Below, piece by piece: positions 10,715-16,820 of a DNA stretch of 64,000 nucleotides. Below the pieces are notes generated by a model. The model was not told where the DNA came from. It ran no database searches and saw only the letters and a list, made by a program, of their open reading frames with translations. The stretch spans positions 5,779 through 69,778 of the forward strand of contig CAZCGQ010000001.1 in NCBI GenBank assembly GCA_964498425.1. Direction: 5' to 3'. The stretch's first letter is position 1; every line of letters starts with the position of its first letter. This stretch comes from an uncultured Gammaproteobacteria bacterium (lineage in GTDB: Bacteria; Patescibacteriota; Microgenomatia; UBA12405; JAHJSD01). The translations under genes and the position numbers were made by a program.

Positions 10715-11122
10715 TTACGCCTGGGGATACATCTGGCGGAATAATTTTATCTTCTTTAACCTTTCAACGGCAAAGTCAAAAATAAACTGGGAGAAAATTA
10801 TAATACCGAAAAAATCAATTATAACGTCGCGAATAGTTCCCTCCCTAGTCGGAACAAGTGTCTGGTGAAACTCGTCAGACATACCGTAAAGTGTAGCAAT
10901 AATAATCGCCAGTTTATTAGCCGACTTCCTCTCGCCAAGACCCAATCGAAGAAGAGAATATAGAACGCCGTATTCAATAACGTGCAGTGTTTTAAAGATA
11001 GCAAAATTAACCCAATAATTACCCCCCATACCGACCTTGTGCTGACTGGAAGCCCAAAAAATCAAGGACATCCAAATCAAGGCTGGTAAAAATCTAAGAT
11101 ACTTGGTTGCCTTTTTCATCAT
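10715..11122 (-). CDS. VanZ-like family membrane protein
   Basis: 135 aa. LPALIWMSLIFWASSQ is a typical VanZ-family N-terminus. Four TM helices. Confidence 0.5.
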   Translation of the reverse strand: MMKKATKYLRFLPALIWMSLIFWASSQHKVGMGGNYWVNFAIFKTLHVIEYGVLYSLLRLGLGERKSANKLAIIIATLYGMSDEFHQTLVPTREGTIRDVIIDFFGIIIFSQFIFDFAVERLKKIKLFRQMYPQA

Positions 11123-11801
11123 TCTTCATTTTATCAAATAATTCTTTTATTTTCGGGCCAAACCCTACCCCGCCAAGAAGCAGTCCTCCCATGCCAATAA
11201 ACCCACCGGCGATTAACTTACCCTTATCCCGAGGTTCTTTCTGGCTGGTTTCACCAAGAACGTCCCCAGGCCCACTGACCTCAAGATCGTTATCTGAATC
11301 CGAAAGAGTTGGAATTGGTGTTGGTGAAACTTCCTGAGTAGGGGTTGGCGATTTCTTAGGACTTGGTGTCGGGGTTAATGTTTCCGTAGGAGTCGGCGTT
11401 GACGTTTCCTTTGGCGTCTCCGTCGGCTTCTTTGTTGGTGTTGAAGTTGGCTCATCCACAGCACGACAATCCTGATTGGCCTCTCCCTTTGTAGGTTCAG
11501 CCTGACACCAACTGCCGTAAACATAGGCCCAGGTGATCCCCTCCTCCGAATAATCGTATAGTTTGTTATCCTTTTCTAGTTGATCATGGTTAAGTAGACG
11601 TACCTCATCTCCACTGTTGTTGAACATGCTATCCATTTCGATAACTGCCAAACTTTTTGCCTCAATCTCCTTGCTGAATTTCTTTGGAGAACTTTTACCT
11701 TCTTCATCATCAATATACCAATCAATCAAATCAACACTAAAATCATTATCATTGTAAATTTCCACCCATTCATCTTCATTATCCGCAGGTTTAGGCATCA
11801 C
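11094..11801 (-). CDS. lamin-tail-domain protein, downstream half (second LTD, Thr/Pro-rich linker, C-terminal Gly-rich hydrophobic anchor)
   Basis: LTD motif NEDEWVEIYNDNDFSVDLIDWYI. The GTG/ATG start at 11801 is in frame with the upstream LTD ORF through a single TAG at 11973-11975. Confidence 0.5.
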   Translation of the reverse strand: MMPKPADNEDEWVEIYNDNDFSVDLIDWYIDDEEGKSSPKKFSKEIEAKSLAVIEMDSMFNNSGDEVRLLNHDQLEKDNKLYDYSEEGITWAYVYGSWCQAEPTKGEANQDCRAVDEPTSTPTKKPTETPKETSTPTPTETLTPTPSPKKSPTPTQEVSPTPIPTLSDSDNDLEVSGPGDVLGETSQKEPRDKGKLIAGGFIGMGGLLLGGVGFGPKIKELFDKMKNDEKGNQVS

Positions 11802-11972: not shown

Positions 11973-12356
11973 CTAACCATCTGGCTTTCTCCCATAAGTA
12001 ACATTCTCCCCAGGACTTTGTTGATAATCATAGGAATCTACCGTAGATTCATTATTATCTAATAATCTTAGTGTATCAGCGGAAGAAACATTTAAATTAA
12101 AATTGCCGCTTTGAAAAGACAAACAGCTTTGGCCATCTAATACCGTACCGCTAGAAATTACATACTTTTGGGTTCCACCGCTGTCATCAATAATCCATCC
12201 GCTGACATCAACGCTATCATAACCGGTGTTATAAATTTCAACCCATTGCTCACTGCTTGGCTCAATTAAAAATTCATTTAGCTTAACTTCGGCTTGACAT
12301 CGGAGAGGAAAAAACATAAGCAAAACAAAGAAAAAAATGAATTTTCTCATTACCAT
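11973..12356 (-). CDS. lamin-tail-domain protein, upstream half (signal peptide plus first LTD)
   Basis: 127 aa. Signal peptide ending RCQA. LTD motif LNEFLIEPSSEQWVEIYNTGYDSVDVSGWII. Ends at TAG 11973-11975, and the reading frame continues open for 57 codons into the next ORF. Confidence 0.5.
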   Translation of the reverse strand: MVMRKFIFFFVLLMFFPLRCQAEVKLNEFLIEPSSEQWVEIYNTGYDSVDVSGWIIDDSGGTQKYVISSGTVLDGQSCLSFQSGNFNLNVSSADTLRLLDNNESTVDSYDYQQSPGENVTYGRKPDG

Positions 12357-12414: not shown

Positions 12415-13641
12415 TTATTTAACGTGCCAGTACATTGTCATTTTCCCGTTCGGGTGGAAGACAAAAACGCCGTTACCGCCGTCGCCGAGGCAGTTGCGGC
12501 AGAAGTAGGCCTCACCTTCGTCAACAGAATAAATTTGGGTATTCATCGGCCCAACCAAATCTATCGCCGGATGCGGTCGCCCGCCGTAAAGGGCATTGGA
12601 ATGACAAGTATAACCATAACCTTGAGAAATATAACTCAAATCCTTCATTGGCCACGGCCACCCGCCGCCGCCAACACTTTTTGTTCCGTCTGATCCGCAA
12701 CCGGACCTCCAACTAACCTCTTGCCCCGCTAAATAATCTAGCGGATTGACGTAATTAGAGTAATACCAACTATCACCAAGATCATCAATTGAACCATAGT
12801 TATAAACACCAAAATGTAAGTGGTCACCGGTAGAATACCCAGTATTTCCTTGTATTCCAATAAACTCCTGTTTATCAACCTTGATTGATTTCCCGCTTTG
12901 CTTTAAAAATAAAGCAGCTTGCTGAATTTCAGCTATTTCTTTTCTAGCTTCAGCCAACAAATTTTGATACCGACGTTCATTATTCTGAGTAACCGTCAGC
13001 AGGTATTCTTTTTCCTGTTTCTGCTGGGCCAAGTTGTTTCTCTGAGCATCTAACTGTGCCTTAAGTTCTTCCAATTCTGCCTGCTTTACTTCCTTTTCCT
13101 CTTTTCGCTGATCGTAATCCGCCCGCATTTTTTCCATTGCCATGAGCATTTTTCGGTCATTGAGCTGGGCAACCTGAAAATATTTCCATCGACGATAAAA
13201 ATTGCCAAACTTTTCTGAAGAAAGAAGCAAATCCACCGAGGAAACCTGTCCTGCCTTATAAGTAGCAATTACTCGGTTAATGAATAAGGCCGAAACATCA
13301 TCTAGCGAGGTATCCAAAATGCCAATTTTTCGGCCGAGTTCATTAACTTGGGCCTCTAACAAACTAATCTTGCTCTGAGTTTGGCCAATTTTAGCCTGAG
13401 TCAACTGAATCTGAGAATTCATATAGCTAATCTGATTCTTTAAGGAAGATTTTTGATTAGCAATATTCGATAACTCCTGTTGACAGTCACTTTGAACCTC
13501 GTTATAAATCTCTAATTGTTCTTCCTGAGATCGGTTATCAATGTCATCGGGGATCTCGCAAGCAGCTCTTAAAGACTGAGCCCCAAGTAAAATGGAAAGA
13601 AGCCCAACTGTCAAAACTGCTGCCAGAAGTTTGCGTTTCAT
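12415..13641 (-). CDS. EnvC-like coiled-coil M23 (LytM) metallopeptidase, FtsEX-associated
   Basis: 408 aa. Signal peptide and about 200-aa coiled coil. GNTGYSTGDHLHFGV (M23 HxH segment) precedes WPMKDL...HPAIDLVGPMNTQIYSVDEG...HPNGKMTMYWHV (M23 HxxxD N-terminal segment). Immediately downstream of ftsX. Confidence 0.75.
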   Translation of the reverse strand: MKRKLLAAVLTVGLLSILLGAQSLRAACEIPDDIDNRSQEEQLEIYNEVQSDCQQELSNIANQKSSLKNQISYMNSQIQLTQAKIGQTQSKISLLEAQVNELGRKIGILDTSLDDVSALFINRVIATYKAGQVSSVDLLLSSEKFGNFYRRWKYFQVAQLNDRKMLMAMEKMRADYDQRKEEKEVKQAELEELKAQLDAQRNNLAQQKQEKEYLLTVTQNNERRYQNLLAEARKEIAEIQQAALFLKQSGKSIKVDKQEFIGIQGNTGYSTGDHLHFGVYNYGSIDDLGDSWYYSNYVNPLDYLAGQEVSWRSGCGSDGTKSVGGGGWPWPMKDLSYISQGYGYTCHSNALYGGRPHPAIDLVGPMNTQIYSVDEGEAYFCRNCLGDGGNGVFVFHPNGKMTMYWHVK

Positions 13642-14549
13642 CGCTTAATATACCGCCGACTGGCTAACCAGGCAGCGAATAAACCCAACAATAAACCAAC
13701 ACCTATTTGTCCGCCTAAAAAGATGGCCAAGGTTTGCGGTTCAGTTGGCAAAACCGAAATTGGGGCAAAAAATGACAAAATTTGTTCACGCCAATAATAT
13801 ATTCCACCGACAACAAACAATTCTCCGAGCAAAGCGCCAATAAAGCCGTAAAATAAGCCTTCCAAAAGAAAAGGGGACTGAACATAAAAACCGCTGGCTC
13901 CAATTGATCTCAAAGCAGCAATTTCATCACGGTGCGTGCCAATCTTCATCCCGATAATAACCATAATCACCACCAAAGAAACAAATCCGTAAACACCAAC
14001 CATAACTAAACCAACATTGCGAATATTCTTGACCCAAAAGGATAATTTTTGGACAACCTCTTTCTGAAAAATAACTTCTTGAACGGAATTTTCCTTAGTA
14101 CTTAAAAAATCAGCAATTGAATTTAAATATTCCGGGCTTGTGGCTGATATTTCCAATGAGGCTGGTAAAATATCTGCACTGACCATTTCTAAAAGCAAAG
14201 GATTATCCTCATTATCCTCTTGATAAATTTTTAAGGCTTCCTCTTTAGACACAAACCTAACTTCCTTTATTCCTTCCTGACTACCAATTTCCTCCTTCAG
14301 TTGGTCAACTTGGGCTGAAGAAAGACCATCTTTCAAAAACGCGGTTACTTCCGGCCGACTTTCAAAATAATTAAGAAGGATCCCAAAAACAAAAATTACA
14401 GCAATAAGCAAACTTGTCATAAAATAATTCAGCCACATAACCAAAATAGCCGCAAAACTCTGAAAAGGTGCCCGCCTCATATGCTGCCAAGTTCTGCTTA
14501 AACTACCCAATTTGGTTTTAATTTTAGTTTCTTTATTCATACTTTCCAT
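13638..14549 (-). CDS. ftsX: cell division permease-like protein FtsX
   Basis: 303 aa. N-terminal TM, periplasmic domain, three C-terminal TM helices. Overlaps ftsE. Confidence 0.85.
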   Translation of the reverse strand: MESMNKETKIKTKLGSLSRTWQHMRRAPFQSFAAILVMWLNYFMTSLLIAVIFVFGILLNYFESRPEVTAFLKDGLSSAQVDQLKEEIGSQEGIKEVRFVSKEEALKIYQEDNEDNPLLLEMVSADILPASLEISATSPEYLNSIADFLSTKENSVQEVIFQKEVVQKLSFWVKNIRNVGLVMVGVYGFVSLVVIMVIIGMKIGTHRDEIAALRSIGASGFYVQSPFLLEGLFYGFIGALLGELFVVGGIYYWREQILSFFAPISVLPTEPQTLAIFLGGQIGVGLLLGLFAAWLASRRYIKR

Positions 14550-15213
14550 TTTCTTTGTCGTGAGCTAATCCTCCATCCTCTAATTTCACTACCCGCTTCC
14601 CAGCAGAGTTAACTATATCAAAATCGTGAGTTGCCATCACTACTGTCGTTCCCGTTTGATTAATTTTTTCAAGTAAATCCATGATTTCCCAGCTTGTTTC
14701 TGGATCCAGATTTCCTGTTGGCTCATCAGCCATCAACAAATCCGGCTCAATAATCAAAGCCCTAGCTAAACATACCCGCTGGAGCTCTCCGCCTGAAAGC
14801 TGGGCCGGAAACATATTTATCCGGCTGAGCAAATTGACTTTATCCAAAACTTCCTTAAGCTTTTCTTCCCGATTTTCATCCTTATCACCAACAACAGCCA
14901 AAGCCATTAAAATGTTTTCGGCAACAGTCTGCCGCCTAAGCAGTCGGTAATCCTGATGGACCATGCCAATTCTACGCCGAAGTGAAAGAATATCCTTGCG
15001 CTTGGTCTTTTTGTTGATTTTCAGGTCATCAACAACTACCTCGCCATTATCTGGGAAATATTCTCCCCGAATTAATTTTAGAACCGTACTTTTTCCCGCT
15101 CCAGATTTGCCGGTAATAAAAATAAATTCTTTCGGCTTAACCTCAAAAGAAATGTCATGAATGGCTTTTACAACACCAAATTCCTTGGTTACATCAGTAA
15201 ATTTTATCCGCAT
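14533..15213 (-). CDS. ftsE: cell division ATP-binding protein FtsE (ABC ATPase)
   Basis: 226 aa. Walker A GKSGAGKST, ABC signature LSGGELQRV, Walker B LLMADEPT. Confidence 0.9.
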   Translation of the reverse strand: MRIKFTDVTKEFGVVKAIHDISFEVKPKEFIFITGKSGAGKSTVLKLIRGEYFPDNGEVVVDDLKINKKTKRKDILSLRRRIGMVHQDYRLLRRQTVAENILMALAVVGDKDENREEKLKEVLDKVNLLSRINMFPAQLSGGELQRVCLARALIIEPDLLMADEPTGNLDPETSWEIMDLLEKINQTGTTVVMATHDFDIVNSAGKRVVKLEDGGLAHDKENGKYE

Positions 15214-15217
15214 CAGT

Positions 15218-15691
15218 TTATTCCAAGACCTTTACCGCGCCCACATCCATCAGCCAACCAACTTTTTGAGCAGCAAAGGTCTCCCCCCAAACCTTGACCT
15301 TGCGGTTAACAAAGCGGTTTAAATCAACTAATGAAGAAGTTAAATATGCTGTTTGCGATTCTCCACCTTCCCGAACCAATTTATGAGTCCCCTCACCCTC
15401 TTCACTGTTTTTTTGAATAACCCCAATCGCTTCGTCGGTAAATTGTTCACTCTGGTTACCATAAGTTTGGCCAACTTTAACACTCTTTCCACTGGCCTGA
15501 CCTGCAGTACCCGTTTGCCCAGTACCAGCACTCCCTTCATTGCCCGAAACTTGCAGTCGGGAAAGCCCAAACCCGCTACCTAACCCAAGCAAGGTTATTC
15601 CGGCAAAAAGTAAAATTAGCCGGATATCAATTAAATTATCTTTTTTTTCTGTTATATCCCCTGGTTGATTCATTTCCACCTGATTATTCAT
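15218..15691 (-). CDS. hypothetical membrane-anchored protein
   Basis: 157 aa. One TM helix and a Gly/Ser/Thr-rich linker. No recognised family. Confidence 0.3.
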   Translation of the reverse strand: MNNQVEMNQPGDITEKKDNLIDIRLILLFAGITLLGLGSGFGLSRLQVSGNEGSAGTGQTGTAGQASGKSVKVGQTYGNQSEQFTDEAIGVIQKNSEEGEGTHKLVREGGESQTAYLTSSLVDLNRFVNRKVKVWGETFAAQKVGWLMDVGAVKVLE

Positions 15692-15713: not shown

Positions 15714-16820
15714 TTAGTCATTTTGCAACTGTTTCAGCTCTGCCTGTATAAACCCTTCCAAATCCCCATCCAAAACCGCCTGTGCATCGTTTGTTTCATG
15801 TTCAGTCCGAGTATCCTTAACTAATTGATAAGGATGAAGAACATAATTTCTGATTTGTTCGCCCCAGGTCGGAACCGCGTTCTTTCCCTTCAAACGTCGT
15901 CTTTCAGCTCGTCTTTCTTTTTCCTTTTGTTCCCAAATTTTAGACTTTAAAATCTGCATTGCAATCTGCTTATTCTTAACCTGCTTTCTTTCCGCCTGAC
16001 AGGAAACAACCAATCCAGTTGGCTTATGCCGCAGACGAACAGCCGTTTCCACCTTATTTACATTTTGACCTCCGTGGCCGCCAGCCCGAAAAGTCTCCAT
16101 TTCAATTTCATCCGGGCTTATCTCTACTTCCAAATCTTTTTCAATAACAGGCAAAACCTCGACTTTGGCAAATGAAGTCTGGCGTAAATTCTGAGCATTA
16201 AACGGAGATACCCGAACCAAGCGGTGAATACCGGATTCCTTTTTCAAATAGCCATAGGCAAACCGCCCGGAAACCTGCAGGGTGACCGATTTGATGCCAG
16301 CCTCTTCACCAGAAATCATATCAACAACCCTGACCTTCCAATCCTTGCTTTGACAATACTTCATATACATTCGCTGTAAAATAGCTGACCAGTCCATCGC
16401 TTCTGTCCCCCCTTGTCCGGCATGAATGGATAGAAGGGCATCACTCTTATCATACTCCCCGGAAAGGAATGTTCTAATTTCTAAATTCGATAATCGGCCT
16501 TCCAATTGGCGAACTTCCCTTTTCAAGTCCGATAAAACCTCATCTTCCGCCTCCATCTTCTCAGCCATTGTAATCAACTCCTCAAGCTCTTTAATTTTGC
16601 TGGAAAACCCTGCTACTTCCTCCAATTCATTATTAATCTCCCCTAATTGGCTCATCACCCTTTGTCCATAATTAGCGTCTTCCCACAAATCTTCTTTTCG
16701 GCTTTCTTTTTCTAATTTTTCTCTTTCCTTTTTCAATTCGGCTAAATCTAATTGGGATTTAACCAACTTAAATCGTTTTTTTAGTTCTTCCAATTTATTC
16801 TTGATTTTGTTCATCTTCAA
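15714..16820 (-). CDS. prfB: peptide chain release factor 2
   Basis: 368 aa. SPF tripeptide (VRVSPFNAQ) and GGQ ([19 protein letters not shown]). Continuous ORF with no +1 frameshift site. Confidence 0.9.

Follow-up and report, generated by a model that had tools for sequence, protein, structure and literature searches.

M23/LytM peptidases and their relatives, including lysostaphin, LytM, and ShyA as well as the activators EnvC and NlpD, are central to bacterial division and provide templates for enzybiotic design. Among the proteins tied to FtsEX, EnvC of Escherichia coli and Vibrio cholerae (6tpi, 8tzl, 8hd0) carries a signal peptide followed by a long antiparallel coiled coil and, at its C-terminus, a LytM-type domain in canonical order, which is catalytically degenerate and serves as an amidase activator. 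PcsB (Streptococcus pneumoniae), RipC, and CwlO (Actinobacteria, Bacillus) are FtsEX-activated hydrolases held by an FtsX-binding coiled coil, with catalytic domains that are CHAP or NlpC/P60 cysteine peptidases. Here, we analyzed a 64,000-nt stretch of DNA (hereafter the window; contig CAZCGQ010000001.1, positions 5,779 to 69,778) from an uncultured, ultra-small bacterium placed by GTDB in the Patescibacteriota (Microgenomatia), which encodes on its minus strand, at 12415..13641, a protein resembling EnvC in its signal peptide, long antiparallel coiled coil, C-terminal LytM-type domain, and tie to ftsEX. Unlike EnvC, this protein has a circularly permuted LytM domain and keeps all catalytic residues, and unlike PcsB, RipC, and CwlO its catalytic domain is of the M23 metallopeptidase type. 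The circular permutation of the M23 domain is genuine and evolutionarily fixed. Overall, we consider it probable that the protein is a secreted peptidoglycan hydrolase partner of FtsEX with a genuinely permuted M23 domain, likely active, FtsX-docked, and septal.

An original prediction, made from the DNA letters and a list of open reading frames (ORFs), had noted that the LytM/M23 elements of this protein appear in reversed order and had proposed a profile hidden Markov model alignment as a check. Both the ORF and the two segments quoted at the time are exact, with IGIQGNTGYSTGDHLHFGV...NPLDYL at residues 260–304 and WPMKDLSYISQGYGYT...HPAIDL...MYWHV at residues 330–407, and the alignments bear out the reversal. 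On the whole protein, the Pfam profile Peptidase_M23 (PF01551) scored 44.6 bits (gathering score 28.7) with a match split into two stretches, the better of which placed residues 356–407 on profile positions 2–52 of 96. Similarly, in phmmer searches against the PDB, residues 330–407 aligned to the first half of solved M23 domains (TagE 5j1l_A 39–116; 3slu_A 224–295) and residues 255–279 to the second half (5j1l_A 127–151; 3slu_A 308–329), indicating that the chain order is reversed, and this pattern was the same for every M23 chain with a printed alignment. The moved piece, ~55 residues long, comprises a VxxGxxIG hairpin, a GxTGxSTGxHLH motif, and an NPxxYL tail, and is now located between the coiled coil and the remainder of the domain; the former domain termini are bridged by a connector of ~24 residues, and the chain stops one residue past YWHV. 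In the window protein, residues 250–304 hold the hairpin GKSIKVDKQEFIG, the motif GNTGYSTGDHLH (H274, H276), and NPLDYL, and residues 329–408 hold, in this order, WPWP, ISQGYGYT, HPAID (H357, D361), a CRNC loop, FHPNG (H396), and YWHV (H406), followed by a lysine and the stop. A spacing of about 85 aa between the two zinc-ligand motifs had also been proposed, which agrees with the 81–83 aa measured; such a value simply reflects a cut near the middle of the domain.

The match to M23 became contiguous once the sequence was re-circularized, i.e., when residues 326–408 were joined in silico to residues 244–312 in canonical order. This re-circularized sequence yielded one Pfam match across positions 2–91 of 96 (58.2 bits), whereas the native domain scored 47.7 bits over two separate stretches. 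It also gave single alignments to 26 PDB M23 sequences with a best E-value of 5e-12, vs 2e-6 for the native order. The PDB alignments crossed the artificial junction unbroken (...YWHVK joined to LFLKQSGKSIKVDKQEFIG..., aligned with ...YAHLNKIVVKTGEFVKKGQLIG...). In the native protein, HxxxD, YxHL, and HxH do not follow one another in the contiguous canonical order of Peptidase_M23, and since contiguity is obtained only after re-circularization, the protein is a permuted-topology homologue rather than a canonical M23 member. A useful point of comparison is a canonical coiled-coil–M23 protein from a metagenome (P0166, 416 aa), which resembles the window protein in length, architecture, an intact active site, and the sub-motifs QGYGYT, GxTGYSTGxHLHF, NPLxYL, and LYxH, but has the canonical order and adjoins ftsW–murG instead of ftsEX. 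The re-circularized domain aligned to P0166 with 36% identity over 146 aa (E-value 1e-19), whereas in native order the coiled coils aligned and residues 251–304 appeared as an insertion that matches the C-terminal residues 360–416 of P0166.

The active site appears complete in spite of the changed chain order. The H, D, H, H zinc ligands listed in the original prediction correspond to H357 and D361 of the HxxxD motif (HPAID) and to H274 and H276 of the HxH motif (HLH), and the third catalytic histidine, H406, is found in the YxHL motif (YWHV). All five residues are invariant in a 114-sequence family alignment and are kept in 166–167 of 167 permuted members, including 47 divergent clusters (H357 in 166/167, D361 in 167/167), and the contrast which the prediction drew with the degenerate E. 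coli EnvC is confirmed. Four cysteines, namely C315 in the new connector hairpin, C346 after QGYGYT, and C381 and C384 in a CxxC loop, are conserved only in the core subfamily that includes the window protein; these might be paired in disulfides that staple the connector, or might make up a second metal site.

Table 1. Permuted M23 peptidase gene, its protein segments, and the upstream genes of the array (window coordinates).
Feature	Position	Strand	Basis
Circularly permuted M23 (LytM) peptidase gene, secreted coiled-coil protein	12415..13641	-	ORF listing, 408 aa + stop, ATG start
Signal peptide or membrane anchor, residues 1–26, MKRKLLAAVLTVGLLSILLGAQSLRA	13564..13641	-	Sequence by eye; AlphaFold2 helix at residues 2–21
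Coiled-coil region, residues ~39–249, presumed FtsX-binding module	12895..13527	-	AlphaFold2 secondary structure, Foldseek, weak NCBIfam EnvC match
Canonically C-terminal M23 half, encoded first, residues 250–304	12730..12894	-	Pfam profile positions ~53–91; C-terminal parts of PDB M23 domains
New connector, old C-terminus to old N-terminus, residues 305–328, AGQEVSWRSGCGSDGTKSVGGGG	12658..12729	-	AlphaFold2 beta-hairpin; invariant C315
Canonically N-terminal M23 half, encoded last, residues 329–408	12418..12657	-	Pfam profile positions 2–52; N-terminal parts of PDB M23 domains
ftsX, 303 aa	13638..14549	-	Pfam FtsX_ECD E 5.7e-19, FtsX E 2e-11
ftsE, 226-aa ABC ATPase	14533..15213	-	Pfam ABC_tran E 8.7e-35; 17-nt overlap with ftsX
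157-aa ORF between prfB and ftsE	15218..15691	-	One predicted membrane helix
prfB (release factor 2), first gene of the prfB-orf-ftsE-ftsX-M23 array	15714..16820	-	Pfam PCRF + RF-1

For structural context, AlphaFold2 was run on the 114-sequence alignment. The full-length model (mean predicted local distance difference test score, pLDDT, of 88.3) has helices at residues 39–61, 67–131, 145–218, and 222–249, followed by a beta-rich domain. The first strand of this domain begins at residue 252, ~20 residues upstream of HxH, and the connector forms strands at 307–311 and 319–323 (block pLDDT ≥89). Searched against the PDB with Foldseek, this model was best matched by EnvC (8tzl_E, 6tpi_A) and RipC (8idc_E, 8idd_E) in FtsEX complexes, along with PcsB (4cgk), all of them established partners of FtsEX. 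E-values were weak (1e-3 to 0.2) and the match was carried by the coiled coil; for RipC, the template modeling (TM) score of the coiled coil was 0.45–0.73 over the target, the highest value being that of 8idd_E (0.73, with a root-mean-square deviation of 3.3 Å). Homologues also match the Pfam family CC_PcsB (PF24568). As modeled, the coiled coil is thus EnvC/RipC/PcsB-like.

The gene neighborhood points to the same partners. The FtsEX association put forward in the original prediction is seen in the window as ftsX and ftsE immediately upstream on the same strand, with the peptidase start overlapping the ftsX stop by 4 nt and the neighboring FtsX carrying a Pfam FtsX_ECD domain. Across 80 related loci, an ftsX homologue was directly upstream in 71 and ftsE in 68, and the prfB-orf157-ftsE-ftsX-M23 array was found in 43–44 (157-aa ORF 43/80, prfB 44/80). 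The linkage extends to two divergent permuted subfamilies, those of P0177 and P0211, whose genes lie immediately 3′ of ftsE–ftsX. The 64-kb window contains no second M23 gene besides the one at 12415..13641.

We next evaluated whether the permutation could have a trivial origin in the assembly or annotation of the contig, for instance through local duplication, inversion, or frameshift. A search of 5.8 billion proteins returned 579 homologues, the best 120 of which are 40–100% identical to the window protein and nearly full length, and all of these come with the same order and the same C-terminal end (YWH[LVM]x-stop in 120/120) although they derive from independent assemblies and sources. The same arrangement was found in the 80 fetched genomic loci. 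Within the protein, the coiled coil aligns to P0166 up to the domain boundary without a half-domain remnant, and downstream of it the next gene lies just 58 nt beyond the stop, which leaves no spare coding space for a hidden second half. Since the order and the C-terminal end are family-wide, assembly or annotation artefact, local duplication, and inversion are ruled out as explanations; we found nothing in favor of any of them and consider such an origin vanishingly improbable. The original prediction had also raised the question of whether orthologues share the permutation, and they do, both in the 120 closest homologues and further out: when 1.84 billion 50%-identity representatives were searched exhaustively with HMMER using the domain alone, 3319 hits were obtained at E ≤ 1e-3. 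Sorting the best 150 of these according to which half-domain match came first gave 55 permuted, 92 canonical, and 3 partial proteins, with nearly all permuted ones ending in YxH[LVM]x.

Other observations do weigh against a permuted, FtsEX-controlled M23 hydrolase. When the domain-only model was searched with Foldseek, no M23 chain was among the 50 PDB matches listed (best E-value 0.9), and the lack of even a partial M23 match for the 80-residue half is an unexplained absence. The coiled coil is only weakly EnvC-like in sequence, with an NCBIfam EnvC (NF008644) match across residues 50–240 of 34.2 bits vs an equivalog cut-off of 270, and ~5 of the related loci with full upstream flanks have no ftsEX nearby; several of the loci without ftsEX correspond to truncated contigs. 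The Foldseek result would also fit a protein in which the two half-domains were not complementary within one chain, and which instead formed a domain-swapped dimer or oligomer, or adopted a fold other than M23, and coiled-coil FtsEX partners such as PcsB are indeed dimeric in crystals (4cgk). Yet the domain is modeled as a compact monomer with very high confidence (pLDDT 93.1, predicted TM score 0.90), the 24-residue connector is conserved and modeled as an ordered hairpin, and the permuted domain aligns contiguously over the junction of natural tandem M23–M23 proteins (see below), all of which make a swap or another fold very unlikely. Order-dependent structure comparison by Foldseek may fail on a permuted domain, but its result lends the M23 fold no positive support, and the assignment of this domain to the M23 fold rests on sequence homology. 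The EnvC likeness, for its part, could be taken to mean that the permuted LytM domain is a non-catalytic activator that switches on a separate amidase or hydrolase upon an FtsEX conformational change: EnvC is among the closest structural matches and is the best NCBIfam match, some family members are labeled “septal ring factor EnvC” by the Joint Genome Institute, and the operon position is that of envC-type partners. However, EnvC-type activators such as E. coli EnvC and NlpD have lost their metal ligands, whereas the five ligand and catalytic residues are kept here in at least 166/167 members across divergent subfamilies, which argues for selection on catalysis, and the same permuted module is used in a type IV secretion system (T4SS) locus (see below). 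With its score far below the NF008644 cut-off and an intact active site, the window protein also falls outside EnvC proper, and we consider an activator role unlikely. Taken together, purifying selection on the five residues, operon linkage with ftsEX, and an EnvC/RipC/PcsB-like coiled coil favor an active Zn-dependent endopeptidase. The protein is most likely an FtsEX-controlled septal peptidoglycan endopeptidase, and the retention of all metal-binding and catalytic residues sets it apart from EnvC-type degenerate activators.

Enzymatic activity, FtsX binding, and a coupling between coiled coil and active site are what we infer for this protein. By analogy with the EnvC, RipC, and PcsB systems (6tpi, 8tzl, 8idc), the long coiled coil would probably dock on the extracellular domain of FtsX, and ATPase cycling of FtsE would set free or activate the hydrolase, switching on septal cell-wall cleavage, such that the permuted peptidase would work like the EnvC/PcsB/RipC/CwlO class of FtsEX-controlled cell-wall enzymes. 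In the AlphaFold2 model, hardly any chain separates the final helix of the coiled coil (222–249) from the first catalytic strand, which begins at residue 252 and lies ~20 residues upstream of HxH, so that movement of the coiled coil could pass directly into the active-site region. The canonical P0166 has a linker of ~35 residues before its M23 domain, whereas in the permuted protein the helix leads nearly directly into the HxH hairpin and the chain ends beside the catalytic histidine. This changed attachment of the coiled coil might allow a more direct mechanical coupling. A bolder reading, possible but doubtful in our view, is that the permutation represents a functional rewiring rather than a neutral accident of topology, in which the coiled coil is rigidly fused to active-site strands and FtsE ATP hydrolysis gates catalysis by mechanical distortion or completion of the active site, the module having reached a T4SS-locus protein and perhaps also the C-termini of cyanopodovirus internal virion proteins. 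If true, such gating would differ from both the restraining arm of EnvC and PcsB-type occlusion, and the spread of the module would define a topological class of M23 enzymes that has so far gone unrecognized and escapes current structure-search pipelines.

As to how the permutation arose, natural tandem M23–M23 proteins (P0151, P0154, P0162, P0168, P0170, P0219, P0236, and P0258) were found among the domain search hits. These score among the best hits because the permuted domain aligns across their inter-domain junction, as illustrated by P0219, in which residues 409–534 align to query residues 254–407. Such contiguous alignments make a duplication-then-truncation route plausible on sequence grounds. 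No intermediate combining a coiled coil with M23–M23 was identified among these hits, the tandem M23 proteins found carrying other N-terminal modules, including BlaR1-M56 and Rod-binding for some of them. In a crude neighbor-joining tree, 41 of 51 permuted representatives grouped in one clade and 10 fell outside, but the alignment is short and noisy and cannot separate a single from multiple origins.

The permuted module was also detected beyond the FtsEX context. P0160 (1118 aa, L085:4001-7357) has a permuted M23 domain with intact ligands at its C-terminus, and is encoded in a type IV secretion or conjugation-like locus that includes six T4SS_pilin genes, PrgI, a TraC-like gene, and a VirB4/TraG-type ATPase. 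Cell-wall enzymes associated with known T4SS systems are active, and P0160 is probably the cell-wall-opening enzyme of this T4SS-like apparatus. A third context is hinted at by P0197, a short permuted M23 protein (175 aa) with a YGHM end followed by a PEP-CTERM-like tail (Pfam 17.6 bits, cut-off 20.7); the permuted form may therefore occur outside FtsEX loci as well, and possibly outside the candidate phyla radiation (CPR). Together, P0160, the divergent FtsEX subfamilies, and this PEP-CTERM-tailed member indicate that the permuted unit behaves as an autonomous module.

A further lead comes from phages. In a Foldseek search of predicted viral structures (BFVD), two large virion proteins matched over the whole domain (probability 0.99–1.0, TM-score 0.49–0.53 over the query), and no canonical M23 endolysins were returned by this search. 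One match is gp33 of Synechococcus phage P60 (1000 aa, L081:2778-5780, corresponding to NC_003390.2 22777-25779; probability 0.99, TM-score 0.49), and the other is a 1191-aa viral protein. Read by eye, the last ~140 residues of gp33 contain GYGSTGPHLD, then GSFGVDFATPDG, then YAFVHGTVPNA-stop, i.e., the motifs are in permuted order, with two ligand positions substituted. The only Pfam match in gp33 was Phage_lysozyme2 (residues 712–837), and a profile of the permuted family gave no significant match to gp33 and hence no sequence-level support, so that the case for gp33 depends on the Foldseek match and on motifs recognized by eye. Likewise, a tblastn search with the domain against 50,697 phage records returned no permuted phage homologue; its four matches, in three Arthrobacter phages (one present as two records), were to the HxH piece in tape-measure proteins. 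Cyanopodovirus internal virion proteins may include a permuted, possibly degenerate, M23-like module, which we offer as a lead only.

Among cellular genomes, the permuted family has a wide distribution across Microgenomates and WWE3-type CPR bacteria. A relative of the permuted peptidase is encoded by at least 291 GTDB species representatives, and the named carriers among those listed include Roizman-, Gottesman-, Levy-, Davies-, Pace-, and Shapirobacteria, WWE3, Microgenomates, and “Patescibacteria group”. Many further carriers have labels such as “uncultured Gammaproteobacteria”, which looks like a placeholder taxonomy, and correspond to metagenome-assembled genomes of 0.6–1.6 Mb. None of the profile matches of the window protein was to a Pfam or NCBIfam model specific for the permuted family, whose members are annotated as “hypothetical”, “CwlO-like”, or “EnvC”. 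Since the Pfam match is split, the NCBIfam match falls below its cut-off, and the Foldseek search of the PDB with the domain model lists no M23 chain, automated pipelines will under- or mis-annotate this family.

To our knowledge, every solved or described M23 member shares the same chain order. The original prediction knew of no described permuted M23 domain, and in the searchable literature, from which most subscription journals are missing, we likewise came across no account of a permuted M23, LytM, or EnvC domain. The permuted M23 domain therefore appears to be an undescribed variation on the topology of a familiar enzyme, within a system that is itself well known, rather than a new kind of system. 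A precedent among cell-wall peptidases is provided by circularly permuted NlpC/P60 families (YaeF/poxvirus G6R, LRAT-like), whose catalytic residues follow one another in swapped order (PMC6403190, citing Anantharaman and Aravind 2003), although these differ from the permuted M23 in both fold and catalytic type. Another parallel is found in hybrid-barrel-sandwich (HABAS) domains, for which three topologies related by circular permutation have been described, and M23 is listed among the families that share the core (PMC11515920); the subject of that study is RNA polymerase insertions, and it reports no permuted M23 peptidase. In the permuted M23 domain, the cut point is located just before the GD-box-like hairpin (VxxGxxIG).

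A widespread and conserved permutant shows that the M23 fold tolerates new termini beside the active site, and offers protein engineers an alternative fusion point. It also provides a naturally occurring test case for the transmission of force from FtsEX to a hydrolase, in CPR/Patescibacteria with an almost unstudied division machinery. We expect the permutation to come as a surprise to M23 and FtsEX specialists, and to be of use in engineering and annotation.

Finally, the surroundings of the peptidase gene display several additional features. The 157-aa ORF at 15218..15691 has no Pfam match, and may be an unrecognized component of the prfB–ftsEX operon in Microgenomates; a small ORF resembling it is also present in locus L084. 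Directly downstream of the peptidase are two genes for secreted lamin-tail-domain (LTD) proteins (11973-12356 and 11094-11801, both on the minus strand), the latter having a linker rich in Pro and Thr and a hydrophobic segment at its C-terminus, followed by a VanZ-like gene (10715-11122). LTD genes recur downstream in 12 of the 80 related loci, and near divergent members of the family (L083, L084). At the scale of the 64,000-nt window, every 2-kb bin shows negative GC skew (cumulative -6.5) and the genes inspected at 9–17 kb are all on the minus strand, which suggests a single replichore with a strong gene-strand bias.

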